A DNA stretch of 43,786 bases from an uncultured Clostridia bacterium (GTDB lineage: Bacteria; Bacillota; Clostridia; Lachnospirales; Lachnospiraceae), in contig CAMUJB010000007.1 of assembly GCA_947089095.1 (NCBI GenBank), positions 1-43,786 on the forward strand, read 5' to 3'. Within the stretch, counting starts at the first letter, position 1, and the number at the start of each line of letters is the position of its first letter. The notes under the pieces are model-generated. The model worked only from the letters and a program-made list of their open reading frames with translations. It ran no database searches and was not told the origin of the DNA. A program made the position numbers and the translations under genes. Shown piece after piece: positions 2,860 through 40,583 of this stretch.

Positions 2860-5800
2860 TTAATTAAAATAACATTTTTTAATTTCACTGGTTGAAATTT
2901 CTTCTAATCCCTGAGCAACTACATACTCTATCATATCAGGCTCTACCGTCCGAATAAATAATAGTGCATCTTCCTTAACATCAATATGAATCTCTTTATA
3001 AAGCACATTTTCAATTGGCATCTGTTCCATCTTAGAATCTGCTATAGGATTGTTGGTATAATAGATACGAACCACTTCTCTTGTAGCCCCTTGGAACGGA
3101 ACCCACTTTTTATACTCAATTTCAGCCGGTGAAAACTTACAGTCAAAATAATGTCTGTGATCTCTTCCTAAATAATAGTGGAAACGGGACTGCTGCAATG
3201 CATCGGTTTCATAATTTTTTTCAATTTTAATTGAACTTCCCGGACGGCTCTTTAACAGTCCATATGCTACTCCTGTTTTTGCATTTGGAACATATTCTTC
3301 TGTATTTTCACTCTCTCCCGTCAGCGGATCAATCAATTCAAAATATGCATTTCCTATTTCATCTGCCATTCTCTTAGATTTGCTGTAATATTCTTCAATC
3401 TTCTTTTGGAACAATTCTTTTACAAATATAGATTTACTGGAATTTCCTGCTAAAAAGATATAAATCTTATTCTCTTCTTTTTTTGTTTTCTCTTTAGATA
3501 AAAACATTTTAATTAAGCATTGGAAGAAACTATCAATTCCTTTTTGAATCCGTTTTTTAATTAATTCTACTAAATCCTGACTGGAAAATTCTAAAATACA
3601 CTGCGGCACAGGTTCTCCATTCATATTGTATAGAGAAACAACAATTCCTTCTTTATCAACTTCATTTTGTGCAGATTCATTGTCTAATTGGTATTTCTTT
3701 CTCCAACCCTGCTCCTGATGCCATAACGGACGCAACTCTTCTTTTAAAATCGACATATTTCTTCTTGCAATCTGAGAATTGATTAATAATGTCTCACTTC
3801 CTGCAAAACTATTCTCTCCAACTGGCAAAGTAAAGGTAATCTTCTTCTCCCGAAATACCTCTAAGTTTTTCTGATATACCTGATAAGCCAGTAATTCCAA
3901 TATATTTTCGCCGCCCAGTGTAACATCCGAATCTGCCCCAAAACATTCTAACACATAGTCATAGGCTTCTCTTTCGTACTCTTCTTCTGTTGCACCTCTG
4001 CAGATTCCAAAATCAAAGTCAGTTGTTCCTCCTCCAAAATCAAAAATTCCATACATAAACTGTTCTGTCTCATCCTTTGGCTCTAGATGACTTTGTTCCA
4101 ACGCTGTTACTGCATATGCTGCCGGCTCGCTGATTCCTAATTTTACCTGGAACCGTTCCATACATTCGGGATCACTCAGTATACTAGAAGGCAGAGATTT
4201 TTTAATTCCTTCATAAAAACTATTGGCTATAAAATCTCTTACATCTTTTGAATATCCAACCGGAAATGTCATTAGATAATTTAAGTAAATACCGTTCCGC
4301 ATATTGTTAATATATAACCCAATATAGTAAGCATACAATTCAATCGGATTGACAATTCCCTCTGTCATCTCAATATGCTCCCCTAAGTAATATTCTTCTT
4401 TTTGCTTATCCTTAATCAGTACACTTCCTTTTTCCCGATTTGCCCACTGTTTTAATTCATTAAAATAGGCATAAAAATCATCCGGCTTACAATTTCGAAA
4501 ATCTTCATAGGCATCATAAGAAACAAAAATATCATTGCAGGAAGTATGCGGTCTGCCAGCTTCTTTTTGATAATCTTCCATAAATTTTTTTACATTTGTA
4601 AATTCAATAATAGTTGGATTTTCGAAATCTTCTTCTTTTACTTCATCACTTAAATTTCCTGTTCCAATTCGAATCGGCACAATCCGGTTCGTAGCATCCT
4701 GACGAACAACGACTGTACTTTTCGTTCCAAAATCAATGCCAACTACACCATTTTTAATATCTAATTTCGGATCTCTTGCAATTAAATTCTCATAACGGAT
4801 TGTCTCACTTTCTGAAAAATTATTCTCTTTTCTGTCTTCCGTCCATTCTAAAGTTTCGGTACCCGATTCTTCACTCTCTTTTCTTGCTTCAAATAATTCC
4901 CAATGTCCTCTGATAATATCAAATAAAATATCTTTATCATATGGTTCTAAACGGCATCTATTTTTATCACAATCTAATAATGTCTGTATTTTTTCCATTT
5001 CTTCGTCTACTTCCCCTTCTCCTTGTATCGCATCTGTTTCTTTTATTTTTTCAATTTCTTCTATATTTTCATTTTCGGCTTTTTCGGTTTCTTTTCGCTC
5101 TTCTGTTTCTTCTGTCTTTTTATTTTCCCTACTTATTATTTTTGTCTCTTCTGCTTTTTCCGTTTTTACCTTCTCTATTTTTTGAATATTTTCTGGTTGC
5201 TGCTGTTCTGCTGCCTTTTCTGGAATTGATTTTAACTGCTTTTGTTGCTCATTAGAACTTTGGTCATTAGAACTTCTTTGCATCTCCTTCTGTTCTGGTA
5301 TTTTATTTTGTAATTCCAACTCCTGCTGATTTTTTAAGTTTTTTGATTCTGCTTTAGAAATTTCTAATTCTATAGATATTTCTGGTTCCGACATCTTAGA
5401 AATTTCAGACATTTCTGATTTATTAACAGATAATAATATCTCTGATTCTTCTAAATTCTCTTGAATTTCTGGCTCTAATACTTCTAATTCTATAGAAATT
5501 GGTTCTTCCTCTACCTCTTCTGCAGCTTCTGATTCTATAGAAATCGGCTCTTCTACTATCTCTTCTGCTTCAAAAGAGATTGGTTCTTCCTCCACCTCTT
5601 CTGCTGCTTCTGATTCTATAGAAATTGGCTCTTCTATTATCTCTTCTGCTTCAAAAGAAATCGGTTCTTCCTCTATCTCTTCTACAGCTTCTGGTTCTAT
5701 AGAAATTGGCTTTTCTACTATCTCTTCTGCTTCAAAAGAAATCGGTTCTTCCTCCACCTCTTCTGCTGCTTCTGATTCTATAGAAATCGGCTCTTCTATT

Positions 5801-7215
5801 ATCTCTTCTGCTTCAAAAGAAATCGGTTCTTCCTCTACCTCTTCTGCTGCTTCTAATTCTATAGAAATCGGCTCTTCTACTATCTCTTCTGCTTCAAAAG
5901 AGATTGGTTCTTCCTCCACCTCTTCTGCTGCTTCTGATTCTATAGAAATCGGCTCTTCTATTATCTCTTCTGCTTCAAAAGAAATTGGTTCTTCCTCTAT
6001 CTCTTCTGCAACTTCTGATTCTATAGAAATCGGCTCTTCTATTATCTCTTCTGCTTCAAAAGAAATTGGTTCTTCCTCTATCTCTTCTGCAACTTCTGAT
6101 TCTATAGAAATCGGCTCTTCTATTATCTCTTCTGCTTCAAAAGAAATTGGTTCTTCCTCTACCTCTTCTGCAATTTCTGGTTCTATAGAAATTGGCTCTT
6201 CCTCTATCTCTTCTGCAGCTTCTGGTTCTATAGAAATCGGTTCTTCCTCTACCTCTTCTGCAACTTCTGATTCTATAGAAATTGGTTCTTCCTCTATCTC
6301 TTCTGCAACTTCTGATTCTATAGAAATTGGCTCTTCCTCTATCTCTTCTGCTGCTTCTGGTTCTATAGAAATCGGTTTTTCCTCTACCTCTTCTGCTGCT
6401 TCTGATTCTATAGAAATCGGCTCTTCTACTATCTCTTCTGCAGGTGCTTGATATAATGAAGATAATTTCGATGTTCTAACTGTTTCTTCCTTCATTAATT
6501 GTTCCGTCTCTTCTAGAACAAGTTCTTTCTTATCCTCCTTTTCCACTATTTCATCCATTTTATTTCTTTGTAAAATAAAATCTTCAAAATCAATATTATG
6601 AAAATTATTACTTAAAAATTGCATCATTTTCCAACTGTCTTTTGAGGTATACAATGCAGATGGCGTTAGACCCATCTTTGCCCAAAGATAGATATCATAA
6701 TTCCAGGATTCTATATCTTTTCTTTTATATTTTTCTTCTACACGATAGATCTGCAAAATTGTTCCCTCTTCATTCTTCTGAAGACGGCGTATTTTTCTAC
6801 GTTCCTCATCATAAACCATGCCATTTTTTAAAAAAATCTTTTTCTTTCGGCATCTTTCTCCAAGTCCGGCAGCTCCAAATGTCTTTGGCATATTAGAAAT
6901 AGGCAGATAAGGAATAATCTGTTCTGCTTCCTCTTCTTTTAAATAATCCCAGACAATCCGCCCAGAATTTATCAAAATCGGACTTCTTTCCGGTCTTTTG
7001 TCTATCCGATAACTATTCTCTAGATACTTTTGTTCCATCGGAATAAAAATGTCTGTAGCCCTATGCTGATACCAGGTTCCTTCCAAACTGACTAATCGAA
7101 TAAATCCATTTACCCAATTACTTGGCGATTCAAAGATCGTGCGAATGTTGGCTTCCATATGGCAGCATTTTTCCCATATCTCTTTTTTCTCCAAGATACT
7201 CCATTTTTTCTCCAT
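2860..7215 (-). CDS. Giant 1451-aa multidomain protein: unknown N-terminal domain, acidic tandem-repeat linker, K/E/Q-rich low-complexity segment, Hsp70/actin-fold ATPase domain, and an unknown C-terminal domain
   Basis: Three Hsp70 NBD motifs are recognisable: VVGIDFGTKSTVV (phosphate-1, compare DnaK GIDLGTTNS), FDFGGGTTDFDFGI (phosphate-2, compare DLGGGTFD), and IFLAGNSSKSIFVKELF (adenosine motif, compare LVGGSTRIP). SD gaggtag precedes the ATG, and the stop TAG of the upstream gene lies inside this SD. Confidence 0.75.
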   Translation of the reverse strand: MEKKWSILEKKEIWEKCCHMEANIRTIFESPSNWVNGFIRLVSLEGTWYQHRATDIFIPMEQKYLENSYRIDKRPERSPILINSGRIVWDYLKEEEAEQIIPYLPISNMPKTFGAAGLGERCRKKKIFLKNGMVYDEERRKIRRLQKNEEGTILQIYRVEEKYKRKDIESWNYDIYLWAKMGLTPSALYTSKDSWKMMQFLSNNFHNIDFEDFILQRNKMDEIVEKEDKKELVLEETEQLMKEETVRTSKLSSLYQAPAEEIVEEPISIESEAAEEVEEKPISIEPEAAEEIEEEPISIESEVAEEIEEEPISIESEVAEEVEEEPISIEPEAAEEIEEEPISIEPEIAEEVEEEPISFEAEEIIEEPISIESEVAEEIEEEPISFEAEEIIEEPISIESEVAEEIEEEPISFEAEEIIEEPISIESEAAEEVEEEPISFEAEEIVEEPISIELEAAEEVEEEPISFEAEEIIEEPISIESEAAEEVEEEPISFEAEEIVEKPISIEPEAVEEIEEEPISFEAEEIIEEPISIESEAAEEVEEEPISFEAEEIVEEPISIESEAAEEVEEEPISIELEVLEPEIQENLEESEILLSVNKSEMSEISKMSEPEISIELEISKAESKNLKNQQELELQNKIPEQKEMQRSSNDQSSNEQQKQLKSIPEKAAEQQQPENIQKIEKVKTEKAEETKIISRENKKTEETEERKETEKAENENIEEIEKIKETDAIQGEGEVDEEMEKIQTLLDCDKNRCRLEPYDKDILFDIIRGHWELFEARKESEESGTETLEWTEDRKENNFSESETIRYENLIARDPKLDIKNGVVGIDFGTKSTVVVRQDATNRIVPIRIGTGNLSDEVKEEDFENPTIIEFTNVKKFMEDYQKEAGRPHTSCNDIFVSYDAYEDFRNCKPDDFYAYFNELKQWANREKGSVLIKDKQKEEYYLGEHIEMTEGIVNPIELYAYYIGLYINNMRNGIYLNYLMTFPVGYSKDVRDFIANSFYEGIKKSLPSSILSDPECMERFQVKLGISEPAAYAVTALEQSHLEPKDETEQFMYGIFDFGGGTTDFDFGICRGATEEEYEREAYDYVLECFGADSDVTLGGENILELLAYQVYQKNLEVFREKKITFTLPVGENSFAGSETLLINSQIARRNMSILKEELRPLWHQEQGWRKKYQLDNESAQNEVDKEGIVVSLYNMNGEPVPQCILEFSSQDLVELIKKRIQKGIDSFFQCLIKMFLSKEKTKKEENKIYIFLAGNSSKSIFVKELFQKKIEEYYSKSKRMADEIGNAYFELIDPLTGESENTEEYVPNAKTGVAYGLLKSRPGSSIKIEKNYETDALQQSRFHYYLGRDHRHYFDCKFSPAEIEYKKWVPFQGATREVVRIYYTNNPIADSKMEQMPIENVLYKEIHIDVKEDALLFIRTVEPDMIEYVVAQGLEEISTSEIKKCYFN
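5470..6450 (-). repeat. Near-perfect 84-nt (45 + 39 nt) tandem repeats inside the giant ORF, encoding EEPISIESE(A/V)AEE(V/I)EE and EEPISFEAEEI(I/V)E units about 20 times
   Basis: The nucleotide repeats ctcttctgc(t/a)gcttctgattctatagaaat(c/t)ggctcttc are almost identical copy to copy. The protein segment is extremely acidic and disordered-looking. Confidence 0.85.
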
Positions 7216-8006: not shown

Positions 8007-8373
8007 TTTCCAATCTCCTATTTTTTATGCTCCGTCACTTCCCACCTAAAATAAATTTTTATATTCCTAAGCGAAATCATAACATCTCAATTATTCTATC
8101 ACACAATTTCCAAATATACAACATAAGAAAAAACATTCTGAGAAGAAAACACATGGTTCTTAATTTCATACCAATTTTTAGTCAATCCATACCAATTTTA
8201 ACCTATCAAGGAAGTAGCAGAGCAGATTCCGAATTTCCTTTGACCAAATAATCAATCTTAAAAAACTCTGAAAGGCAAATTTTACAGTCAAATTTCGATA
8301 AAATAATAGATGACTTTTAACAGAATGTCCTGTAGAATAAAATAAAAATTCAAAATCTAAGGAGTAAAAAATA

Positions 8374-8933: not shown

Positions 8934-8990
8934 CAAGGAAGTCCCCCCACCTCTTTCGCCTTCACGGCTTCGAAACGGGGGACTTCCTTG
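8934..8990. repeat. Copy A1 of the palindromic repeat family A (caaggaagtcccc ... ggggacttccttg hairpin), in inverted orientation relative to A2
   Basis: Perfect 13-14 bp stem. The internal approx. 30 nt is the reverse complement of the A2 internal segment, with substitutions. It lies between the convergent GNAT and BlaR1-like genes. Confidence 0.6.
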
Positions 8991-9001
8991 ATAGGTTAAA
9001 A

Positions 9002-10612
9002 TTACCTTTCGTTACTTACAGGTATTTCCTCTGTTTCCCCAACAGCCCGTTCTAACAGTTCTGTTATTTCTTCCTCCGTCATATAAGAAACACCTGTAAT
9101 CTCTCCTTCTGCATTTCGAATAATTTTAATGCTTGCCGTTCCTTTTGAATTGATATCAAGCATATAAAACGAACTGTCAGGACGCTGATCCTTAATAATG
9201 TTGATTAATTCACCCTGATAATAATAAGATTTCCCATTTTTTTCAATACCATAAGCTGCATACTCCTCAATAAGTGCGGTATCGTCCCAATCCCAGTCTT
9301 TATCGTCCCAGTCAAACCCCCAATCTTCATCATTCCAATCCCCATCGTCCCAATCAAACCCCCAATCTTCATCATTCCAATCCTTATCGTCCCAATCAAA
9401 CCCCCAATCTTTATTATTCCAATTCCCATCCTCCCAGCCAAAATTCCAATTTTTATTATTTCCATTCCAGCCAATATCCAAATTTTTATCAGAAACATAG
9501 CTATCCATTTCATGTCTTTTCTGTTCTGATATTAAAATTTCGCTTTTTTCAGCAGAATCGGAATGGTTTGCTGAAGCAGTTGGATAAACACCAACAAAAG
9601 CTGCTCCAAAGAGTAAACACAGTGTAGATATACCTGTAAAAATCCGAACCGTCTTTGTTTTTTTCTTAAAATTCATAATTGCACCTAACCTTTCTTTTAA
9701 TTGTTTCGCTCCCTCAGTCAAAGTTACCGATGTGAACGATCCTTTACGGAGATGATCGATCTTTAAAAATAAAAGCAAGACATCTCCATACTCACGTCTT
9801 ACGCTGTCATCAAGCATGGCTATAACTGCTTCATCACATGACAATTCACACGCTTTATTTACTTCTTTTTCAAGCAAATAAACAAACGGATTAAACCAAT
9901 GAATACAAATTACAAGCTGTATCAGCCATTTATAAAACATATCCCGCCGTTTGTAATGATTTAATTCATGCATAAAAATATAAGATAACTCTTTCTCCTT
10001 CCATTCTCTAACAGGCAAAATAATACTAGGACGAAAGAAACCAATCATAATGGGCGATGAAATCAAAGAATTACTATATAATTCTACTCTCGTTTTCATA
10101 CTCTGTTTTTCTTCCAAATCAGACAGCAAATTCAATATTTTTACATCTGATATCTCTGTATTGCCAACTTTCATATATTGAATAAAGCCTTGATAAATTG
10201 TCACTTTGCGGACAAAAAGAACTACTGCAAATACTGACCAAATAAAAAAGAGACACGCATATCTATCAAATAACTTCTGTTTAGCAGCATTATTTACAAT
10301 TATATTTTCATTTTCTAGTACCTGTGGTCGTATTGGTTCGTTGTTATCTGTATTTACTACAGCAGACAGCTTAGAACCTGCAGAATTCTCATTTGTTATA
10401 ACAACTGTACGAAACAGTTGAAACAAGCTTCCTACATTTATTGTATCAGGTGTAAAAGGAAGCAAAAACCGCAGCACAACAATGATCCAAATATAATACT
10501 GCCAACGCCTGCTGAACTTATTTTTATATAATGGTTTGAATCCTAAAATAAGCAATAGCAACAGTGTACCGGAAATAGACAGTGACAATACTATTTTCAT
10601 AAATTCATCCAT
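9002..10612 (-). CDS. BlaR1/MecR1-family M56 peptidase-type membrane sensor with a W/D-rich tandem-repeat region
   Basis: N-terminal TM helices, then the M56 zinc motif FMHELNHYKRRD (HExxH). Four repeats of DWGFDWDD(K/G)DWNDE follow. No BlaI-like repressor gene is adjacent. Confidence 0.75.
   Translation of the reverse strand: MDEFMKIVLSLSISGTLLLLLILGFKPLYKNKFSRRWQYYIWIIVVLRFLLPFTPDTINVGSLFQLFRTVVITNENSAGSKLSAVVNTDNNEPIRPQVLENENIIVNNAAKQKLFDRYACLFFIWSVFAVVLFVRKVTIYQGFIQYMKVGNTEISDVKILNLLSDLEEKQSMKTRVELYSNSLISSPIMIGFFRPSIILPVREWKEKELSYIFMHELNHYKRRDMFYKWLIQLVICIHWFNPFVYLLEKEVNKACELSCDEAVIAMLDDSVRREYGDVLLLFLKIDHLRKGSFTSVTLTEGAKQLKERLGAIMNFKKKTKTVRIFTGISTLCLLFGAAFVGVYPTASANHSDSAEKSEILISEQKRHEMDSYVSDKNLDIGWNGNNKNWNFGWEDGNWNNKDWGFDWDDKDWNDEDWGFDWDDGDWNDEDWGFDWDDKDWDWDDTALIEEYAAYGIEKNGKSYYYQGELINIIKDQRPDSSFYMLDINSKGTASIKIIRNAEGEITGVSYMTEEEITELLERAVGETEEIPVSNER
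9270..9480 (-). repeat. 42-nt coding tandem repeats (DWGFDWDDxDWNDE units) inside the BlaR1-like gene
   Basis: Repeated gtcccaatcaaaccccc(a)atcttcatcattccaatcc units can be read directly in the sequence. Confidence 0.65.
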
Positions 10613-10774
10613 TTTCTTTTCTCCAGAAGATTTCCATTTTTTAGTTATTTTTCGAAAAAATATCCCGCTGTAACAAGATTGATATAAAACTTATCTTAAC
10701 ATTATGTAGGTATGTATCTATCTTAACACTTTGTAGGTAATAATGCAATACCCCAAAAAAATTTTTAACCTCAT

Positions 10775-10928
10775 CAAGGAAGTCCCCCGCTTCTAAGCCG
10801 CTAAGGCGAAAGCGGTGGGTGGGGACTTCCTTGTTTCAGTGGGAGTGCAGACTCCCACTGAAAAGCTGCGATAGCAGCTATGAGGTTAGGAGCAAGTAGC
10901 GAAGCGGATTGCGAATATCCGATTTGAC
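10775..10928. repeat. Composite palindromic repeat: A2 hairpin (10775-10833), secondary hairpins (cagtgggagt/actcccactg and gctgc/gcagc), and module B2 (ggagcaagtagcgaagcggattgcgaatatccgatttgac)
   Basis: The same A and B modules recur at 8934, 19634-19709 and 23778-23873 in different orders and orientations. All copies are intergenic. Confidence 0.6.
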
Positions 10929-11029
10929 TATTTTAGAAAAACTAAAAATGTTTCAACAGCAGCTTTCTTCTCTATTTTTTTACGAAATTTCAGAAACGTA
11001 TTTTCCTCTATTGCATAATTAAGGACACA

Positions 11030-16507: not shown

Positions 16508-16561
16508 TTTTTCCTTCCTTTTCTTTCTCTTTTATCGTTTATAAGGGAATTCCGAGGGGAC

Positions 16562-16793
16562 GCCAGAGTGCAGTAGAGCAGCACTGTTCCGCTCTACGGA
16601 AAGCAGAACTTCTAAGACTTCTGAATAGACGTGTATACCACCGGACGGATCGGGGTGCAATTCGCCCGTACAGCGGGCTAAACACACCCCTTTTTTGCCA
16701 TTCAAGAATGGCAAAAATCCTAGTGAATCGACAGAAGTCTAAGAACTTCTAGCTTTCCTCCGAAGTCACAGTGCTGCTCTACTGCACTCTGGC
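16562..16793. mobile_element. MITE-like palindromic element C1 (232 nt) with perfect 26-bp terminal inverted repeats and nested sub-hairpins
   Basis: TIR gccagagtgcagtagagcagcactgt / acagtgctgctctactgcactctggc. Internal IR pairs: agaacttctaagacttctg / cagaagtctaagaacttct; ggggtg..cacccc; tttttgccattcaagaatggcaaaaa. A diverged inverted copy lies at 19830-20075. Confidence 0.55.
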
Positions 16794-17273
16794 TATTCCT
16801 TCCTGCCTTCTAGTTTCTTTGTTCTGCCGTTTCTACCTTCTACCGTGTCTCTGCCGGTTTCCTTCAAATATAGGAACCCAATCGGTTTATCATTATCAAC
16901 TGTGCAAAAAAATACTTTATCTTTGCTTTCTGCAAGATACTTTTCTCTCGTCTCTGATATTCTGAATCATTCTGGAAGAGCCTCAAGGACAAACCTTGAA
17001 AACACTAAGGTTGTCATAGATGAGTTTTTCCCTGGTGTTATATCTTCCCGCAGGACATTATAAATTCTGATAAAGGGAAAATGAGAGAAACAAAATTATA
17101 TAAAACATTATAACACAAAATATGCGGGTATGCACGAGAGAGATTATAGAGAAAGAGATCCATCTGACCGACACAGTCATTTACGGTTACTTGATATTTT
17201 ACGGTTCATCTTTCTTCTTGGATATGTCCACACGGTTCTATTAGTTAGTTAAAATAAGACCTATTTAACATAC

Positions 17274-17326
17274 TTGACATAGGGAAAATAAAATGATATA
17301 ATTAGAAACATTCAAATGTATCTAAT
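17274..17326 (+). promoter_or_regulatory. Consensus sigma-A promoter (TTGACA-17-TATAAT) with a palindromic TetR-type operator overlapping the -10/+1 region
   Basis: ttgacatagggaaaataaaatgatataat, followed by aattagaaacat-tcaa-atgtatctaatt (12-bp arms, 1 mismatch). Confidence 0.55.
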
Positions 17327-17342
17327 TGTAAGAGGTGAGCTT

Positions 17343-17990
17343 ATGGCACGAAATAAATATCCCGAAATCACAGAAGCAAGGATATTGGACACAGCGACAA
17401 AACTTTTTTTAGAAAACGGGTGGGAGCGGACCACTATTCAAGATATTGTTGACGAATTAGGCGATATGACACGCGGAGCGTTCTATCATCATTTTAAGTC
17501 CAAAGATGAAATCATAGACGCTGTTACAACCCGTATCTTTATGGGGAACAATCCCTTTAAGGCAGTAGAAGAAATCAAAGATTTAAGTGGGCTTGAAAAA
17601 ATAAAGCATTTCTTTAAGTTTTCCCTACAGCGTAACGATACCATAAAATTCAGTGACGTTGCGGGAAGCGTATTAAAAAGTCCCATTTCTATTGGGAAAC
17701 AGGTCTTAGACAGTATCAATAATATGGCACCCTACTTTACGGAATACATCACAGAGGGCATAAAAGATGGTTCCATTCATGTGAACAATCCAAAGCAAAC
17801 AGCCGAAAGTATGATTTTGCTTGTAAATGTCTGGTTCAGTCCTTTTGTATTCTCCGATACGAAAGAAGATTATATGAAGAAGTATGAACAGTTGAAACTG
17901 ATGTATGAAGGGATAGGGCTTCCGCTGTTTGATGATGAACTGCAATCGTTATTTGAAAACTTATATGACAGGATTGCTGCACGCCAGTAA
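17343..17990 (+). CDS. TetR/AcrR-family transcriptional regulator
   Basis: N-terminal HTH ARILDTATKLFLENGWERTTIQDIVDELGDMTRGAFYHHFKSKDEI. RBS agaggtgag is followed by ATG at 17343; the ORF-track start at 17316 lacks an RBS. Confidence 0.85.
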   Translation: MARNKYPEITEARILDTATKLFLENGWERTTIQDIVDELGDMTRGAFYHHFKSKDEIIDAVTTRIFMGNNPFKAVEEIKDLSGLEKIKHFFKFSLQRNDTIKFSDVAGSVLKSPISIGKQVLDSINNMAPYFTEYITEGIKDGSIHVNNPKQTAESMILLVNVWFSPFVFSDTKEDYMKKYEQLKLMYEGIGLPLFDDELQSLFENLYDRIAARQ

Positions 17991-18034
17991 GATATAAAAA
18001 GCTGCCGTTTTATTGGCAGTTTTTATATAAGGAA

Positions 18035-18057
18035 ATACATACATTCATATGTATTAA
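18035..18057 (+). promoter_or_regulatory. Second copy of the TetR-type operator core (ACATTCATATGT) upstream of the chimeric transporter ORF
   Basis: aatacatacattcatatgtatt shares the ACATTCA(A/T)ATGT core with the operator at 17308-17319. A terminator-like hairpin gctgccgttttattggcagttttt lies at 17999-18024. Confidence 0.4.
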
Positions 18058-18070
18058 AGGAGGATAAAAA

Positions 18071-19546
18071 ATGCAAACGGAATTTGTAGTGCAAACAAAA
18101 AATCTTTGTAAGGTATTTGCCGGAAAGGAGGTTATTCACAACTGTACCATGTCTGTTGAGAGGGGAACAATCTATGGATTTTTGGGAAAAAACGGAGCCG
18201 GAAAAACGACAGTATTCAAAATCCTGTTAGGGTTGTTAAAACCCACTATGGGCGAAGTAAACGTTTTAGGTATGGACAGCAGCAAAAACAATTTGGAAGT
18301 ATTAAGGCGAACAGGAAGTCTGATAGAAACACCGATATTCTATGAACATCTGTCTGCTATGGATAATCTGCAATTACATCTTGACTATATGGAAATGAAT
18401 GGGGGAGAAATTGCGGAAACTCTTAAAATGGTAGGCTTATCAAATGTTGGTACACAGGCTGTTTCTACGTTTTCACTTGGTATGCGTCAACAGCTGGCGA
18501 TTGCACGAGCAATCGTACATAAGCCGGAACTTCTTATTTTAGACGAGCCTGTAAATGGTCTTGACCCCGTTGGAATAAAAGAAATGCGGAAACTGTTTTG
18601 TAAATTGGTAAAGCAACAAAACATTACCATTTTGCTTTCAAGCCATATCCTTTCTGCATTTGAGTCTCCCACTGTTCAAGCGTGTGTTCCTCAAATACAG
18701 TCTAGCGATAACATCATCAAGGGTAATGCGGTTGTAAATCAAGTAGCTGCGGTGGCTGCTCTCATTGCCCCGATACTTGGAAGTGTTCTCTATACTACCT
18801 TTGGCCTAAAGCCGGTTCTGTATGCAGGAGTTTTATGCTTTTTTGTTACGGCGGCATTTGAATGTTTTATTAAGCTGGAATACATACCAATAGATAACAG
18901 TAAAGGTCTTTTATCCATTATCAAGAGTGATTTTCTAACAAGTATGCGATTTATGGGCAAAGAACAATCCTGTATTTTAAAAATGTTGCTTTTAAGCACA
19001 TTGGTTAGTTTTTTTGTAATGGGAACAGCTATAGTAGGTCTGCCTTATATTGTGCGGAATGTACTGGACTTAAACGCTGAATATTATGGTTTTGCAGAAA
19101 GTGCGTTGGGATTGGCTGCAATCATTGGGAGCATTGCAGCCGGACTATTAACAGAGAAAATGAAACCCGGAAAACTATCAATCGTAGTTGTTGTTCTTGG
19201 AGTATTTCTTTTTCCGGCGGGCATTATTTTTCTTCTTCCAACAACAGCAATTACACGATACATTGTCAATATTATTTCGTTTTGTGGTATACAGATTGCT
19301 GCTTGCATTTTTTCTATTTTTGCTCTCTCTATAATACAGCAAAGAACCCCTAACCATTTAACGGGAAAAGTGATGGCATATGTCGCTACTATTTCTATGT
19401 GTGCCCAACCGTTAGGGCAAATGGTTTACGGAATATTGTTTGATAAATTTAGCAATGCCGTTTTTCTTGTATTACTTCCAACGGGAATACTTGTCTGCAT
19501 GATAGGTTTACTTGCCGTAAACTTTTTCAAAAGTTTAGAAAATTAG
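18071..19546 (+). CDS. Chimeric ORF: ABC-transporter ATP-binding domain (through the H-loop) fused in frame to the C-terminal half of an MFS transporter; probable deletion-derived fusion or pseudogene
   Basis: Walker A GKNGAGKTT, signature FSLGMRQQL, Walker B LLILDEP, and H-loop SSHIL. The remaining approx. 290 aa are polytopic MFS-like helices (LIAPILGSVLYTTFG ... LTGKVMAYVATISMCAQPLGQMVYGILFD). No ABC permease gene is present. Confidence 0.6.
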   Translation: MQTEFVVQTKNLCKVFAGKEVIHNCTMSVERGTIYGFLGKNGAGKTTVFKILLGLLKPTMGEVNVLGMDSSKNNLEVLRRTGSLIETPIFYEHLSAMDNLQLHLDYMEMNGGEIAETLKMVGLSNVGTQAVSTFSLGMRQQLAIARAIVHKPELLILDEPVNGLDPVGIKEMRKLFCKLVKQQNITILLSSHILSAFESPTVQACVPQIQSSDNIIKGNAVVNQVAAVAALIAPILGSVLYTTFGLKPVLYAGVLCFFVTAAFECFIKLEYIPIDNSKGLLSIIKSDFLTSMRFMGKEQSCILKMLLLSTLVSFFVMGTAIVGLPYIVRNVLDLNAEYYGFAESALGLAAIIGSIAAGLLTEKMKPGKLSIVVVVLGVFLFPAGIIFLLPTTAITRYIVNIISFCGIQIAACIFSIFALSIIQQRTPNHLTGKVMAYVATISMCAQPLGQMVYGILFDKFSNAVFLVLLPTGILVCMIGLLAVNFFKSLEN

Positions 19547-19633
19547 AGGGATATTGGTATAGAATGATTTGAATGGGTACATTGCCCTGTTTGCGGAAAT
19601 AAAACAAGATTGTGAATACGGAAAGATACGAAA

Positions 19634-19709
19634 GTCAAATCGGATATTCGCAATCCGCTTCGCTACTTGCTCATAACCTCATCAAGGAAGTCCCCGCTTC
19701 TAAGCCGCC
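19634..19709. repeat. Repeat modules B3 (reverse orientation) and a truncated A3 hairpin arm
   Basis: gtcaaatcggatattcgcaatccgcttcgctacttgctcataacctcat followed by caaggaagtccccgcttctaagccgcc. Confidence 0.55.
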
Positions 19710-19829
19710 AGACCATTGTGCCGAGGTTCGGCGGTTTCAACTATTTTATGCCCCACTGCCTCTGCCCCTGCCAGCAAAAAGCACAGGAGGAACAGGCAAG
19801 ATACAAAATATTACAAGCAGCAGAAAACA

Positions 19830-20075
19830 GCCAGAGTTGGGAAGCAATATCTTTCTGTTGTGACTTCGGAGGAAAGTTAGAAAATCTTAGGCTTCTGTCG
19901 ATCTCTAGGATTTTTTGCCATTCTCGAATGGCAAAAAAAGGGGTGTGTTTAGCCCGTTGTACGGGCGAATTGCACCCCGGTCCGTCCGGTTGGATACAGG
20001 TAAATGCAGAAGCCTTAGATTTTCTTACTTTCCGTAGAGCGGAACAGCAGAAAGATATTGCTTCCCAACTCTAGC
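19830..20075. mobile_element. MITE-like palindromic element C2, a diverged inverted copy of C1 with its own 28-bp TIRs
   Basis: TIR gccagagttgggaagcaatatctttctg / cagaaagatattgcttcccaactctagc. The core ttttttgccattctcgaatggcaaaaaaaggggtgtgtttagcccgttgtacgggcgaattgcacc is the reverse complement of the C1 core. Confidence 0.5.
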
Positions 20076-20158
20076 GTCCGTCTTGACACACCCCACTCTT
20101 TATTCCAGCCATAAAACATAAAACTTCCTCTCCGCTCCCCTCCCTTTCAACATGTCCC

Positions 20159-23662: not shown

Positions 23663-23777
23663 ATTCTTTTCTCCTTATTACTAATAATCTGATTCAAAGT
23701 GGGTTTTTAAATAAAATAGGATGCCGATTCTAAGTATAAAAAAATTTAGAACCGATATCCCATTCGATTTCAGTATA

Positions 23778-23873
23778 GGTTATGAGCAAGTAGCAAAGCG
23801 GATTGCGAATATCCGATTTGACCCTATCAAAGAAGTCCCCCTTCTAAGCCAGAAAGCGGCGGGGGACTTCCTT
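23778..23873. repeat. Repeat modules B4 (direct) and A4 hairpin
   Basis: ggttatgagcaagtagcaaagcggattgcgaatatccgatttgac, then caaagaagtccccc...gggggacttccttt. Confidence 0.55.
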
Positions 23874-29388: not shown

Positions 29389-29522
29389 TGTATCGAAGGA
29401 GGTTTCTTTGCTGGGGCCGTTTGCACTAAGGCTTCCTCGCAGCGGACACATAAGGCACGAAAATACCGTGCCTAAGTGCCGGCGGGAAGCAATACCCCTG
29501 CAAAGAAACCTCCTTCGATACA
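29389..29522. repeat. Palindromic structured element D1 (134 nt) with a 22-bp perfect closing stem and internal sub-hairpins
   Basis: gtatcgaaggaggtttctttgc ... gcaaagaaacctccttcgatac. Internal hairpin ggcacg-aaaatac-cgtgcc. D2, 380 nt away, is its inverted copy. Confidence 0.6.
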
Positions 29523-29611
29523 AGCTGTCTGTTCCTTCCTATTCATTTTGCACCATTTCTGCTGTATAAAATTTATCCATATTTTCAACTAAACGATTCG
29601 CCTTAATATTC

Positions 29612-29662
29612 TTTTCTAATTTAAAACGTTTTTTTTATTTTCTAATTTAAAACGTTTTTTTA
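29612..29662. repeat. Tandem duplication of a 25-nt AT-rich unit containing the palindrome AAAACGTTTT, between D1 and D2
   Basis: ttttctaatttaaaacgttttttt appears twice in tandem. Confidence 0.6.
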
Positions 29663-29768
29663 ATATCAAATCAATAGCATAAGCATATCTCTACTCTATA
29701 TCTATTCACCGTTTATTAAGAATACAAAATCAAAACAGGATTTATCTGCCAACCGGTCGGTATATACA

Positions 29769-29909
29769 GTAGGTATGGAAAGGGAATTCTCTGCAGGGGT
29801 ATTGCTTTCCGCCGGCACTTAGGTGCTGTCTTTTAGCACCTTATGTGTCCGCTGCGAAAAAGCCTTAGTGCAAACGGCCCCAGCAGGGAATTTCCCTTTC
29901 CATACCTGC
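29769..29909. repeat. Palindromic structured element D2, an inverted diverged copy of D1 with compensatory stem substitutions
   Basis: aggtatggaaagggaattc ... gaatttccctttccatacct closing stem. The internal hairpin ggtgct-gtctttt-agcacc differs from the D1 hairpin ggcacg/cgtgcc at 2 positions on both strands, so pairing is preserved. It lies 50 nt downstream of the pnp stop. Confidence 0.6.
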
Positions 29910-37448: not shown

Positions 37449-39032
37449 TTAACCAAGAAGAGAAAGAACTCCTTGATTGCTCTGATTTGCTTGAGCTAAC
37501 ATAGATTGACCAGCTTGAGCCAAAATATTATTATTCGCATATCTTACCATTTCAGTAGCCATATCCGTATCACGAATTTGACTTTCAGCACTTGTCGTAT
37601 TCTCCACTACATTATCTAAGTTATTAATTGTATGCTCTAAACGGTTTTGAACAGCACCAAGGGCAGCTCTTTGATCAGAAACTTTATTCAATGCCGCTTT
37701 AATTGTTTCAATTGCATTTAATGCATTTGTATCATCTTCTCCATTTACCTTTAAACCAGTGACACCAATTGCCTTAGCACTCATAGATTTTATATCAAGA
37801 GAAATCTGATTATTGGTTGTAGCATCTGCACCTACATGAAGATTCAAAGTTAAAGCACCTACATCAAATTTATCTGTATAACTTAGCAGTCTATCCACGT
37901 CAGCCTGTGTTGCCAACTGACGGTCAGTTGCACCCTCTCCTGTCTTTAAATACAGTTCTGCATTAGGATCTAACTTACCATTGTTGTTAATATATTTATC
38001 TAAACCATTCGCAGCAATCTCATTACCATCCCTATCAATAAATTGAACTACGCCCTTACTTGTATAGTCAGAATAAGCGACAGAATCTACAGCAAGTTTT
38101 ACAGGAGCAAGCGTAGAATAATACTTCGATATATCTGCAGCAGTCGCACCAATATCTGTTCCTATCTCTTTCCTATTTCCATCTGAATCATATACTTCTG
38201 TCTTCAGCTTATAATGTGCACCAGTATCAGTTACAGTATTACTAGCAATTGCAACTGCTTGACTCTTTATATCACCTGTTCCAGCACTAGAAGAATAATA
38301 AGTTGCTGTTGAATCATATGCTTCCCCAGAAGCAACTTGATAATATTCATCTCCCACTTTCTTCAAATACTTACCTGTACTATCCGTGAAAACTGCTTCC
38401 GAATTATTTAAGAAATTACCAGAATCACTAGATGCAATCGCTACTCCATAGGTTGCACCTGTACTGTCACTATAATATACTTTTGTTGAATCAACTGCTG
38501 TTTTCAACGTCCCTTTCGATAAAGTCTTAACGGTATTATCTTCTACATAGTAAAGGTCTTGGCTAATCACATCTACTTCTTTATATTGGAAATTTGTGTC
38601 TTTTGCAGCATTTACATCCCCTTTTAACAAATAAGTTTCATTAAACTTCGTTGTCTCCGATACACGATCGATTTCTGTTACCAACTGATCGATCTCAGCC
38701 TGAATCGCATCTCTATCAGAAGAAGAATTCGTTCCATTTGCTGCCTTTACTGCCAATTCATTCATTCTCTGAAGCATATCCTGTACTTCTGTCAACGCAC
38801 CTTCTGCTGTCTGTACGGCACTGATTCCGTCCTGTGCATTAGAAGAAGCCTGTGTCAGTCCTCGGATCTGTTTTCTCATTTTTTCGGAAATTGCCAAACC
38901 TGCTGCATCGTCTGCTGCACGATTGATCTTATAACCAGATGATAATTTTTCTGTGGATTTTGCCTGAGCCTTGGTTGTGATACCTAGCATACGATTAGAA
39001 TTCATTGCTGTAAGATTGTGTTGTACTACCAT
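37449..39032 (-). CDS. fliC: Flagellin with a large variable central domain
   Basis: Conserved N-terminal D0/D1 ([17 protein letters not shown] ... [17 protein letters not shown]) and C-terminal D1/D0 ([16 protein letters not shown] ... [25 protein letters not shown]). SD aaggagg precedes the ATG. Confidence 0.9.
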
Positions 39033-39584: not shown

Positions 39585-39620
39585 TGCCAATATGAAAATG
39601 CAACATTTGTTAGTAAAATG
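39585..39620. repeat. Palindromic 15-6-15 site 1 (aaaatgcaacattt-gttagt-aaaatgttgcatttt); candidate recombinase core site or operator
   Basis: Perfect 15-bp arms around the 6-nt spacer gttagt. It lies between divergent csrA and the recombinase gene. It matches the inverse of site 2 (40383-40419) at 33 of 36 positions. Confidence 0.55.
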
Positions 39621-39664
39621 TTGCATTTTTAAGAAAGCAAAATTCAACGAACGGAGGATCTATC

Positions 39665-40255
39665 ATGAGCACAACACAGCCTATTAAAAGCAAAGACGCA
39701 CTGAACCAATTTAAAAATTATTATTTGCTGCAAAAACCTCAGCCAAGAAACTATACCCTGATTATATTGGGACTAAATACAGCACTGCGAATCTCCGATA
39801 TTCTCACATTAAAATGGAACGATATCTATGATGACCATACTAAAACCATGAAAAAACATTTAGAAGTAATAGAACAAAAGACCGGAAAATCCCGCACGAT
39901 TGCATTAAACCGCTCTATCTGCACCACCCTAAAAAACTACCTTTCGTATTCCTTCCAGGAAAAACCCTATGAAAAAGAGCAGTATCTCTTCTTAAGTCAG
40001 AAAGGAAAGAATGAGCCAATCAGTCGTTCTCAAGCCTACCGAATTATCTGTACTGCTGCCAAAGCATCTGGACTGGATCAACATATCAGCTGCCACTCTC
40101 TAAGAAAGACATTCGGTTATCATGCGTGGAAACAGGGAACCCCTCCAGCCCTTTTAATGGATCTTTACAATCACTCCTCCTACAGCATTACCAAGCGATA
40201 TTTAAGTATTGAACAAGACGAAAGAGATGAAGTGTATTTAAAAATTACACTCTAA
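39665..40255 (+). CDS. Small tyrosine site-specific recombinase (FimB/FimE-sized, 196 aa)
   Basis: Catalytic residues in order: R (ALRISDIL), H-x-x-R (HSLRKTFGYH), H (LYNHSSY), Y (ITKRYL). SD ggagga lies 7 nt upstream. A strong terminator hairpin aaatgccgcttatc/gataagcggcattt follows at 40272-40307. Confidence 0.8.
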   Translation: MSTTQPIKSKDALNQFKNYYLLQKPQPRNYTLIILGLNTALRISDILTLKWNDIYDDHTKTMKKHLEVIEQKTGKSRTIALNRSICTTLKNYLSYSFQEKPYEKEQYLFLSQKGKNEPISRSQAYRIICTAAKASGLDQHISCHSLRKTFGYHAWKQGTPPALLMDLYNHSSYSITKRYLSIEQDERDEVYLKITL

Positions 40256-40271
40256 TCCAATCACAAAAAGA

Positions 40272-40307
40272 AATGCCGCTTATCGACAGAGGATAAGCGG
40301 CATTTCC
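40272..40307 (+). terminator. Rho-independent terminator of the recombinase gene
   Basis: gaaatgccgcttatcgacagaggataagcggcatttc followed by a T/A-rich run. Confidence 0.6.
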
Positions 40308-40382
40308 CTTGAAAAATAAAAAATTTAAAAAAATTCAAAAACGCTATAAAGTATTTTATAAAAACACCGATATAAGGAATAT

Positions 40383-40419
40383 AAAAATACAACATTTTAC
40401 TAACAAGTGTTGTATTTTT
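40383..40419. repeat. Palindromic site 2 (aaaaatacaacatttt-actaac-aagtgttgtattttt), an inverted copy of site 1
   Basis: Its spacer actaac is the reverse complement of the site 1 spacer. The two sites bracket an approx. 760-bp segment that contains the recombinase gene. Confidence 0.55.
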
Positions 40420-40583
40420 ATTTTTTATAAAGTATCTTCCTTTTCTATTCTACTAAACAGCATAAACAAAAGCAAATATTTTTATACATATCTATCATAT
40501 CTTATAAAATTCAAGAAAATTTTTCATATTTTTCCTAAATTTTCTGTATTTTACAACACATTATACGAATCAAATATTCTATC

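Follow-up and report, generated by a model that had tools for sequence, protein, structure and literature searches.

Two long palindromes, C1 and C2, lie in opposite orientation on either side of a 3.0-kb segment, close to the start of a gene for a GH78 α-L-rhamnosidase. The stretch of DNA that holds them (the window) covers 43,786 nucleotides of an uncultured Clostridia bacterium of the Lachnospiraceae (assembly GCA_947089095.1, contig CAMUJB010000007.1). What are these elements, and how did they come to stand at this locus? A reading of the sequence alone had taken them for two copies of an element resembling a MITE (miniature inverted-repeat transposable element), bounded by terminal inverted repeats (TIRs) of 26–28 nt. 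Here, we find that C1 and C2 belong to a dispersed family of at least 150 folded copies, that they come from two subfamilies whose positions with respect to genes are opposite, and that they bound a single inserted block, one at each end. We regard it as probable that they are abundant, lineage-restricted, structured palindromic intergenic repeats of a REPIN- or MITE-like kind, mobilized in trans and insulating transcription.

Both copies lie where the sequence-only reading had placed them (Table 1), and each is, as it had proposed, a nested palindrome that folds into a single long hairpin (z-scores of −12.3 to −14.6), with 0 of 200 dinucleotide shuffles equally stable. The folding energies are −127 and −139 kcal/mol for C1 (z = −12 and −14 relative to dinucleotide shuffles) and −129 and −140 kcal/mol for C2 (z = −14). 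The two copies are mutually inverted and have blocks of 92 nt and 44 nt in common, at 88–91% identity; both contain the conserved core noted before, together with its hairpin TTTTTGCCATTC..GAATGGCAAAAA. In the '+' orientation of the element, GGACG-CCAGAGT is followed by a segment that differs between the copies (18 nt in C1, 24 nt in C2), by an inner stem common to both, the few differences in which are compensated, by an apical junction made of two small hairpins, and by the mirror arm. The outer 18–24 nt of C1 and C2 are unlike, and each arm pairs with its own partner (26 nt, all complementary, in C1; 28 nt perfect within a 32-nt arm in C2), so that the description of self-pairing but copy-specific ends stands. 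C1 is 54–55 nt from the start codon of the rhamnosidase gene, also as described.

The family to which C1 and C2 belong is large. A pattern for its core, searched against one genome per species, matched at least 120 stretches; besides chance matches, nearly all of these came from a single mouse-gut Lachnospiraceae metagenome-assembled genome (MAG), MGBC128194, many of them at contig ends. A contig from the strain group of the window is 98.8% identical to the window and approximately 96% identical to MGBC128194, which is therefore essentially the same species as the window strain. Using an nhmmer profile built from full copies, at least 150 non-redundant hairpin copies were found in 615 kb of this fragmented short-read MAG (taken as 8-kb blocks; some copies may hold consensus errors). 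Assigned by the length offset of the outer stem, 81 of them are of class A, 61 of class B and 8 unclassified. The same profile run across the window finds only C1 and C2. The flanks of the copies are mutually unrelated. A count of the core had been called for in the sequence-only reading; the copies found in this MAG, their unrelated flanks and the empty site in sister species (see below) make the family a dispersed one and exclude a segmental duplication. The two copies in the window are not independent of each other, being the ends of one insertion (see below).

Relatives of the family were sought in several collections. Rfam gave no match in the window at the gathering score, and a permissive Rfam scan gave chance matches only (E ≥ 2), including an echo of mir-548 in hairpin 2 (E = 2). 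A blastn search with C2 found no match in plasmid and phage collections. A generic core pattern had no match in viral contigs and matched 13 stretches in metagenome contigs, the real ones coming from one sample series. Full-text literature searches found no description of the family. The family looks narrowly distributed, within one species-level lineage.

The family unit is 235–255 nt long: an interrupted stem of approximately 85 bp ends in a conserved three-way junction that includes two small hairpins. From an alignment (A3) that comprised 87 full copies, RNAalifold predicted 67 pairs, 44 of which show compensatory (double) changes. Stem cells pair in 97.1% of cases, compared with 82.3% after column shuffling and 40–48% when the partner is slid by one to three columns, and double-changed cells number 879 against 249 expected. 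The outer stem varies widely between copies, and yet approximately 95% of its cells are Watson–Crick pairs within each copy; only GACGCYAGAG..CTCTRGCTG at the extreme ends is conserved across copies, the adjacent 18–24 nt being copy-specific. The inverted ends that had been read as TIRs are real, but they form only the lowest part of the covarying 85-bp stem and vary from copy to copy, unlike the TIRs that a transposase binds.

The core is conserved far more than the stems are. Hairpin 1 occurs in one fully compensated variant (GGGGTG/CACCCC to GGCACG/CGTGCC, and GCCCG/CGGGC to GCCTC/GAGGC), with its internal loops CAATTC and TAAACA invariant in 87 of 87 copies, and hairpin 2 has at least four alternative stem versions across the family, each of them paired. 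Conserved unpaired bases together with freely covarying stems suggest that the folded nucleic acid is recognized by something. One-sided (G–U) intermediates are scarce relative to full swaps, and the swaps include transversions; block exchange between copies, or correction of an arm against its partner, therefore fits at least as well as stepwise compensation at the RNA level. Orthologous copies in 99%-identical strains (locus L042 compared with L132 and L137) differ by one-sided changes only, some of which may be MAG consensus errors. Arms are matched in 85 of the 87 copies; the remaining two (L086 and L054) carry arms of different types, showing that recombinant copies arise and persist. We also noted that on contig L126 (3371–3830) the left half of C2 is joined to the right half and flank of the class A copy at MAG locus L043, beside a T2SSE gene. 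Its outer arms are mismatched and its coverage is 2.7×; it could represent a misassembly as well as a genuine recombinant, and was not used as evidence.

A short peptide, KKGVCLARCTGELHP(D/G)PSG, can be read in both C1 and C2. The sequence-only reading had suspected it to be spurious, correctly: compensated variants of the element alter 5 of its 13 residues, a T-run of 6 rather than 7 shifts the frame, and the open reading frame (ORF) spanning it has no Pfam match. The family is without coding capacity.

The difference between the ends of C1 and C2, which had also been remarked on, is real, but it reflects two subfamilies that are placed oppositely with respect to genes, class A after 3′ ends and class B before 5′ starts. 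Class A, to which C2 belongs, has a 24-nt outer-stem segment resembling GGGGAAnnGATTCCTT.., a G-rich outer flank and the inner flank CTGTCTTTTCCTGCC..; the segment of C2 is of the GGGAAG.. type found in most class A copies. Class B, to which C1 belongs, has an 18-nt segment, the outer flank ..CCAAAGAG and the inner flank CTGTATTGTCCCACAATTTACG... C1 is of the GCAGTA.. subtype, and its 18-nt segment is of the same type as that of the MAG copies at L065 and L040. Counting ORFs (called mechanically, here and in the clustering below) that are 120 aa or longer and lie no more than 400 nt from a copy, class A turns its outer side to the 3′ end of a gene in 27 cases against 12, whereas class B turns its outer side to a 5′ start in 26 against 4 (Fisher P = 3 × 10−6).

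The two classes also occur together. Among neighbouring copies less than 3.5 kb apart, 36 of 39 pairs are arranged '+' then '−', and 30 of those 36 consist of one A and one B. Taken with the placement counts, this gives the usual order as gene 1, A (sense), spacer, B (antisense), gene 2. The smallest gap between A and B is 78–84 nt, with conserved sequence, giving a minimal A–B unit of approximately 570 nt. Larger gaps hold locus-specific tandem amplifications of pieces of the spacer, a second repeat family, fragments of insertion sequences (ISs) or whole genes; the spacer is readily enlarged by tandem duplication or takes up foreign DNA. In seven spacers (L004, L040, L052, L068, L071, L095 and L104), tandem arrays with units of approximately 20–65 nt, in up to about 10 copies, are made of duplicated pieces of the conserved inner flanks, for example TTGCTTCATGCATCCATAGAG... 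or ...GTAGATTGTGGAATAAT.... At L034 (6372–7993), two facing class A copies enclose one gene for an α/β-hydrolase-like protein (265 aa, with an HGGGF motif) on the opposite strand. Besides the window, this is the second instance in which a pair of hairpins encloses a gene.

What, then, is the origin of the pair in the window? Followed along the minus strand, the locus runs from the gene for the Na/Ca exchanger through an 80-nt G-rich spacer to C2 (A, sense), then through a 3.0-kb segment to C1 (B, antisense), a 51-nt spacer and the GH78 gene, with the A...B polarity seen genome-wide. The genes of the enclosed segment are all on the strand opposite to that of the neighbouring genes, and its GC content is 35–39%, compared with 41–47% in the flanks. 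They encode a TetR regulator and a transporter in which an ABC ATPase domain (residues 23–162) is followed by an MFS permease domain (residues 193–446), an ORF that may be a fusion or a product of decay. All strains with an identical exchanger protein carry both C1 and C2. In sister species, which have an exchanger protein 85–90% identical and the same Rnf...MatE...exchanger synteny, the GH78 gene begins only 67–98 nt downstream of the exchanger gene, and no member of the hairpin family is present within 9–15 kb of these loci. The sole alignable remnant is CTTATAAA..AAAGGAA..ATG just 5′ of the rhamnosidase start. Because the outer genes adjoin in sister species that have no element, the block C2–[ABC/MFS, TetR]–C1 of approximately 3.6 kb, extending roughly from 16551 to 20158, is an insertion. 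C1 and C2 are its two ends, in keeping with the A...B polarity of the family. The search for empty sites that had been proposed thus yielded an empty Na_Ca_ex–GH78 junction in sister species but no target-site duplication. A look-up of the exact TetR protein returned no record, and a look-up of the exact ABC/MFS protein returned the same locus only; the cargo was not seen elsewhere.

Signals related to transcription are distributed unevenly between the orientations and classes. In the '+' orientation of all copies, hairpin 1 (−21.9 kcal/mol) is followed by a run of five to seven U residues, a stable GC-rich hairpin with a direct U-run being the sequence-level pattern of an intrinsic terminator; the '−' orientation has no such run, and hairpin 1 of C1 is likewise terminator-like in the '+' orientation only. 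A T-run of at least four within 14 nt past the full hairpin is present in 44 of 58 class A copies versus 8 of 46 class B copies. In class A, G–U pairs alone allow the G-rich 5′ flank to join the U/C-rich 3′ flank, and this pairing adds −12.9 kcal/mol in the sense strand versus −5.4 in the antisense strand (42 of 43 copies), with no such asymmetry in class B. In class B, TGn plus a TATAAT-like hexamer (resembling an extended −10 element), reading outward and ending 0–4 nt before the base of the hairpin, occurs in 25 of 46 copies, compared with none of 58 in class A; a promoter scan calls such a site in L083. The −35 region is weak. G–U pairs in the stems of class B number 48 in sense versus 14 in antisense (P = 2 × 10−5; 37 versus 14 when one shared column is left out), whereas no bias toward sense is seen in the class A main stem (35 versus 49). 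Judged by these motifs, class A looks like a terminator. As for the suggestion of the sequence-only reading that C1 may supply or disrupt the promoter of the rhamnosidase gene, C1 abuts a TATAAA and ribosome-binding-site region upstream of the GH78 gene that is common to sister species, but it does not have the extended −10-like motif of many class B copies.

These observations are consistent with the following scenario. The family would have spread as non-autonomous selfish DNA, with an enzyme supplied in trans that recognizes the folded hairpin and its junction. Complementarity of the arms would be kept by the needs of recognition, by template-switch correction of quasi-palindromes, an established mechanism, or by both. 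Hairpin 1 and its U-run, pointing outward in each copy, could together with the T-run of class A stop transcription arriving from either side; as the putative terminators face outward on both sides, an inserted unit would insulate transcription. Some class B copies may restart transcription toward the downstream gene.

Several observations weigh against this scenario. No target-site duplication was detected, the longest word shared by the flanks being 5.2 nt on average compared with 5.03 nt in permuted flanks, although the fuzzy boundaries of the elements would hide a duplication of 2–4 bp. No transposase recurs next to the copies: an all-against-all clustering of 528 ORFs gave small paralogue clusters only (at most six members, unannotated). 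A phmmer search with IS608 TnpA and Escherichia coli RAYT queries found no Y1- or RAYT-like ORF in the DNA examined, a negative that is a lead only. Filled and empty sites were found between species and not among close strains, and the empty site is compatible with joint arrival of the hairpins and their cargo as well as with stepwise entry, such as that of the cargo into an existing A–B unit. The terminator and promoter roles are predictions at the level of motifs; a simple terminator scan called no terminator at the hairpin copies, C1 is without the extended −10-like motif of class B, and a stop at the U-run of hairpin 1 would preclude the full RNA hairpin, which is hard to reconcile with the evidence for RNA pairing in class A. 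Finally, the polarity of the classes could track the direction of replication and not that of transcription. Neither the window nor the 615 kb examined from the MAG yielded an autonomous relative with the same ends. At L133 (413–2216), a hairpin copy is split by an IS with a 411-aa transposase-like ORF and terminal inverted repeats, with a duplication of approximately 10 bp (GGCTAAACAC) of the element core; this copy was then truncated by an IS5-like element.

How does the family compare with known systems? In transposons of the IS200/IS605 type, folded DNA hairpins and not duplex sequence are recognized, no target-site duplication is made and insertion is orientation-specific. The present family resembles them in its hairpins, which would be recognized in folded form, in its fixed orientation and in that no target-site duplication was detected, but their hairpins are only 20–30 nt long, differ between left and right and flank tnpA/tnpB, and no such gene was seen here. 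The closest analogue is provided by the REPINs or REP-BIMEs and their RAYT proteins in Pseudomonas and E. coli (PMC3116915, PMC3337134). REPIN hairpins show frequent compensatory changes, form tandem clusters and depend on a trans-acting, single-copy transposase (PMC3116915). As in those systems, where extragenic copies number in the hundreds, we find at least 150 copies, inverted hairpin doublets with compensated stems, tandem clusters, subfamilies within one genome, no internal transposase and no visible target-site duplication. Unlike them, the hairpins described here are 235–255 nt long with an apical three-way junction (REPs are 20–40 nt and REPINs approximately 100 nt), the doublet consists of two whole hairpins of different subfamilies whose polarity with respect to genes is fixed, a Firmicute is the host, and the DNA examined yielded no RAYT-like gene with the queries mentioned above.

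Correia elements (CREE) of Neisseria and ERIC sequences of enterobacteria, the classic MITEs of bacteria, are, like this family, intergenic and form long stem-loops in mRNA (PMC3184786). Correia and ERIC elements can carry promoters or terminators and alter the expression of neighbouring genes, and the evidence for their mobility consists of filled and empty sites, as here (PMC3184786). However, they are 100–160 bp long, with TIRs conserved across copies and TA or other target-site duplications, whereas in the hairpin family the terminal arms vary and no duplication was detected; the sequences show no similarity. The BOX elements of pneumococci, also Firmicutes, have end modules that pair around a tandem middle, comparable to A–[tandem array]–B, and the pneumococcal SPRITE is a terminator-like repeat (PMC3184786, PMC10969869), but the modules of these repeats are approximately 50 nt long and unrelated in sequence, and no polarity of two subfamilies has been described for them. 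A pair of IMU MITEs around an integron (Poirel 2009, summarised in PMC3184786) resembles the window in that two non-autonomous repeats bracket passenger genes absent from relatives; in that case experiments demonstrated mobilization, a 5-bp duplication being made and an IS relative known, whereas movement of C2–cargo–C1 is deduced from one empty site. The comparison to MITEs made in the sequence-only reading therefore captures part of the picture (small, multicopy, no transposase gene, filled and empty sites) but not the conservation of TIRs across copies. As the TIRs are not conserved in this way and the size is not that of REPs, the family is a member of no named family. More tentatively, it is possible that the A–B doublet is a hairpin-ended mobile insulator of an undescribed kind, whose folded single-stranded DNA would be recognized by a single-copy enzyme encoded elsewhere (RAYT-like or new), and which would insert with a polarity, bring its own outward terminators and restart promoter, and capture and move passengers such as the TetR–transporter pair.

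Explanations other than a mobilized repeat have to be weighed against the same data. The copies could be regulatory cassettes domesticated by the host and retained in each intergenic region for the service that their RNA does the cell, with class A serving as a 3′ terminator or stabilizer, class B as a 5′-leader hairpin with its own promoter, and the covariation resulting from selection on the RNA at each locus; the long duplex might then be an RNase III processing site. Such a role would account for a core far more conserved than the stems and for its invariant internal loops, for G–U pairing specific to the sense strand (in 42 of 43 class A flanks, and 48 versus 14 in class B stems), for the strict placement relative to genes and for the class-specific T-runs and extended −10 motifs. 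We nevertheless consider it rather unlikely. The family occurs in one species-level lineage and is missing from the syntenic regions of sister species, and so does not represent a function of long standing in the host; class A lacks a sense bias of G–U pairs in its main stem; the scarcity of one-sided G–U intermediates fits templated correction of DNA or block exchange better than stepwise compensation in RNA; and, in the manner of selfish repeats, the copies undergo recombination and cause breaks in assemblies. It is improbable that the copies are genes for a structured non-coding RNA, or for a guide-like RNA with a variable outer segment that would determine the target of an effector: although a conserved scaffold with a variable segment of 18–24 nt, strong covariation and the lack of an Rfam match are what it would predict, that segment always lies within a perfect duplex formed with its complement and comes in a few related sequence types and not in hypervariable form, and the copies have neither a conserved neighbouring protein gene nor a promoter common to all.

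The remaining explanations have still less in their favour. Inverted repeats of 235–250 bp around short promoter-bearing spacers, and a cargo oriented opposite to all its neighbours in the window, are reminiscent of a phase-variation switch with A and B at the boundaries of an invertible segment. However, a crossover in the core would leave the outer stems mismatched, whereas the arms are matched in 85 of 87 copies and every A–B pair is in the same state, and no recombinase is linked to the copies, making such a switch very improbable. Taken by itself, the window, with only two copies and the peptide readable in both, might suggest a segmental duplication at the locus, a palindrome arisen by chance or a gene for a small protein; the copies elsewhere with their unrelated flanks, the z-scores of −12 to −14 and the covariation refute them and leave them practically no probability, the coding alternative being further contradicted by the altered residues, the frame-shifting T-run and the missing Pfam match. 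Two other candidates were rejected: a retron non-coding RNA, for which the topology does not fit and a reverse transcriptase is missing, and integron attC sites, as the copies are dispersed and not arrayed.

Table 1 Features of the locus of C1 and C2 in the window
Feature	Position	Strand	Basis or remark
GH78 α-L-rhamnosidase gene, 5′ start toward the outer side of C1	13034–16507	−	Pfam
Spacer from C1 to the rhamnosidase start, contains CTTATAAA..AAAGGAAGG	16508–16558	−	Still alignable to the intergenic region of sister species
C1, class B hairpin element (GCAGTA.. outer-stem subtype)	16559–16794	+	nhmmer profile positions 1–251, 239 bits
C1 outer stem, 5′ arm	16562–16587	.	Pairs with 16768–16793; 26 nt, 100% complementary
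C1 apical hairpin 1, GGGGTG(CAATTC)GCCCG-TACA-GCGGGC(TAAACA)CACCCC then T6	16652–16696	+	RNA fold, −21.9 kcal/mol
C1 apical hairpin 2, TTTTTGCCATTC-AAGA-GAATGGCAAAAA	16692–16717	.	At least 4 stem versions in the family, all paired
C1 outer stem, 3′ arm	16768–16793	.	Pairs with 16562–16587; 26 nt, 100% complementary
Segment between C1 and C2	16795–19827	+	Pfam, promoter scan, GC; absent from sister species
Consensus promoter-like site in the enclosed segment	17274–17302		Promoter scan score 12/12
TetR regulator in the enclosed segment	17316–17990	+	Pfam
ABC_tran/MFS fusion ORF in the enclosed segment	18071–19546	+	Pfam
Fragment of the second repeat family in the enclosed segment	19633–19695
C2, class A hairpin element (element '+' is the minus strand of the window)	19828–20078	−	nhmmer profile positions 1–252, 265 bits
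C2 outer-stem arm	19830–19861	.	Pairs with 20044–20075; 32 nt, 94% complementary (28 nt of it perfect)
C2 apical hairpin 2 (19911–19939) and hairpin 1 (19940–19978)	19911–19978	−	Sequence, alignment, family comparison
C2 outer-stem arm	20044–20075	.	Pairs with 19830–19861; 32 nt, 94% complementary
G-rich spacer (80 nt) from the Na/Ca-exchanger stop codon to C2, outer flank of class A	20079–20158	−	G-rich flank is family-wide
Na/Ca exchanger gene, 3′ end toward the outer side of C2	20159–21097	−	Pfam PF01699

The window contains further repeats. The second structured family mentioned above has a unit of approximately 170 nt (TTTAACCTCATCAAGGAAGTCCCC ... GAGGTTAGGAGCAAGTAGCGAAGCGGATTGCGAATATCCGATTTGAC) with no Rfam match; it recurs in intergenic regions, often within the spacers of A–B units. 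Its full copy in the window is at 10764–10929, with fragments at 8194–8215, 8943–9001, 19633–19695 and 23777–23840, and it also occurs at L027, L038, L071 and L100. A gene for a 196-aa tyrosine recombinase with a Phage_integrase domain (39665–40255) lies between 43-nt inverted repeats (39589–39631 and 40382–40424), adjoining a flagellin gene (37449–39032); this cassette (39589–40424) resembles an invertible switch that would govern phase variation of the flagellum. An imperfect inverted repeat at 29404–29890, with 132-nt arms at 82%, 223 nt between them and a nested 31-nt pair, sits in the intergenic region of approximately 880 nt between the PNPase and RnfC genes and is not a member of the hairpin family. 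Two repeats are located within ORFs: in-frame tandem repeats of 81 and 45 nt (5400–6487) in a 1451-aa ORF with no Pfam match (2860–7215), and 42-nt repeats (9281–9448) in an ORF for a BlaR1-like M56 peptidase (9002–10612).

Repeats of the REP, ERIC, Correia and BOX families are mostly short and best known in Proteobacteria and pneumococci. The family described here is longer and more elaborate than usual intergenic repeats, with 85-bp stems, a conserved junction and two gene-aware subfamilies, and its host is an uncultured gut Lachnospiraceae. It accounts for a visible part of this host's intergenic sequence, where it breaks short-read assemblies and promotes chimeric joins. In the window, C1 and C2 mark the insertion of a regulator–transporter pair beside a carbohydrate-degrading gene. 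The tolerance of at least 150 near-perfect long palindromes in one genome, and the upkeep of their arms, can be tested directly in this family. If the terminator and promoter predictions are true, a single repeat family would set the transcript ends of hundreds of genes.

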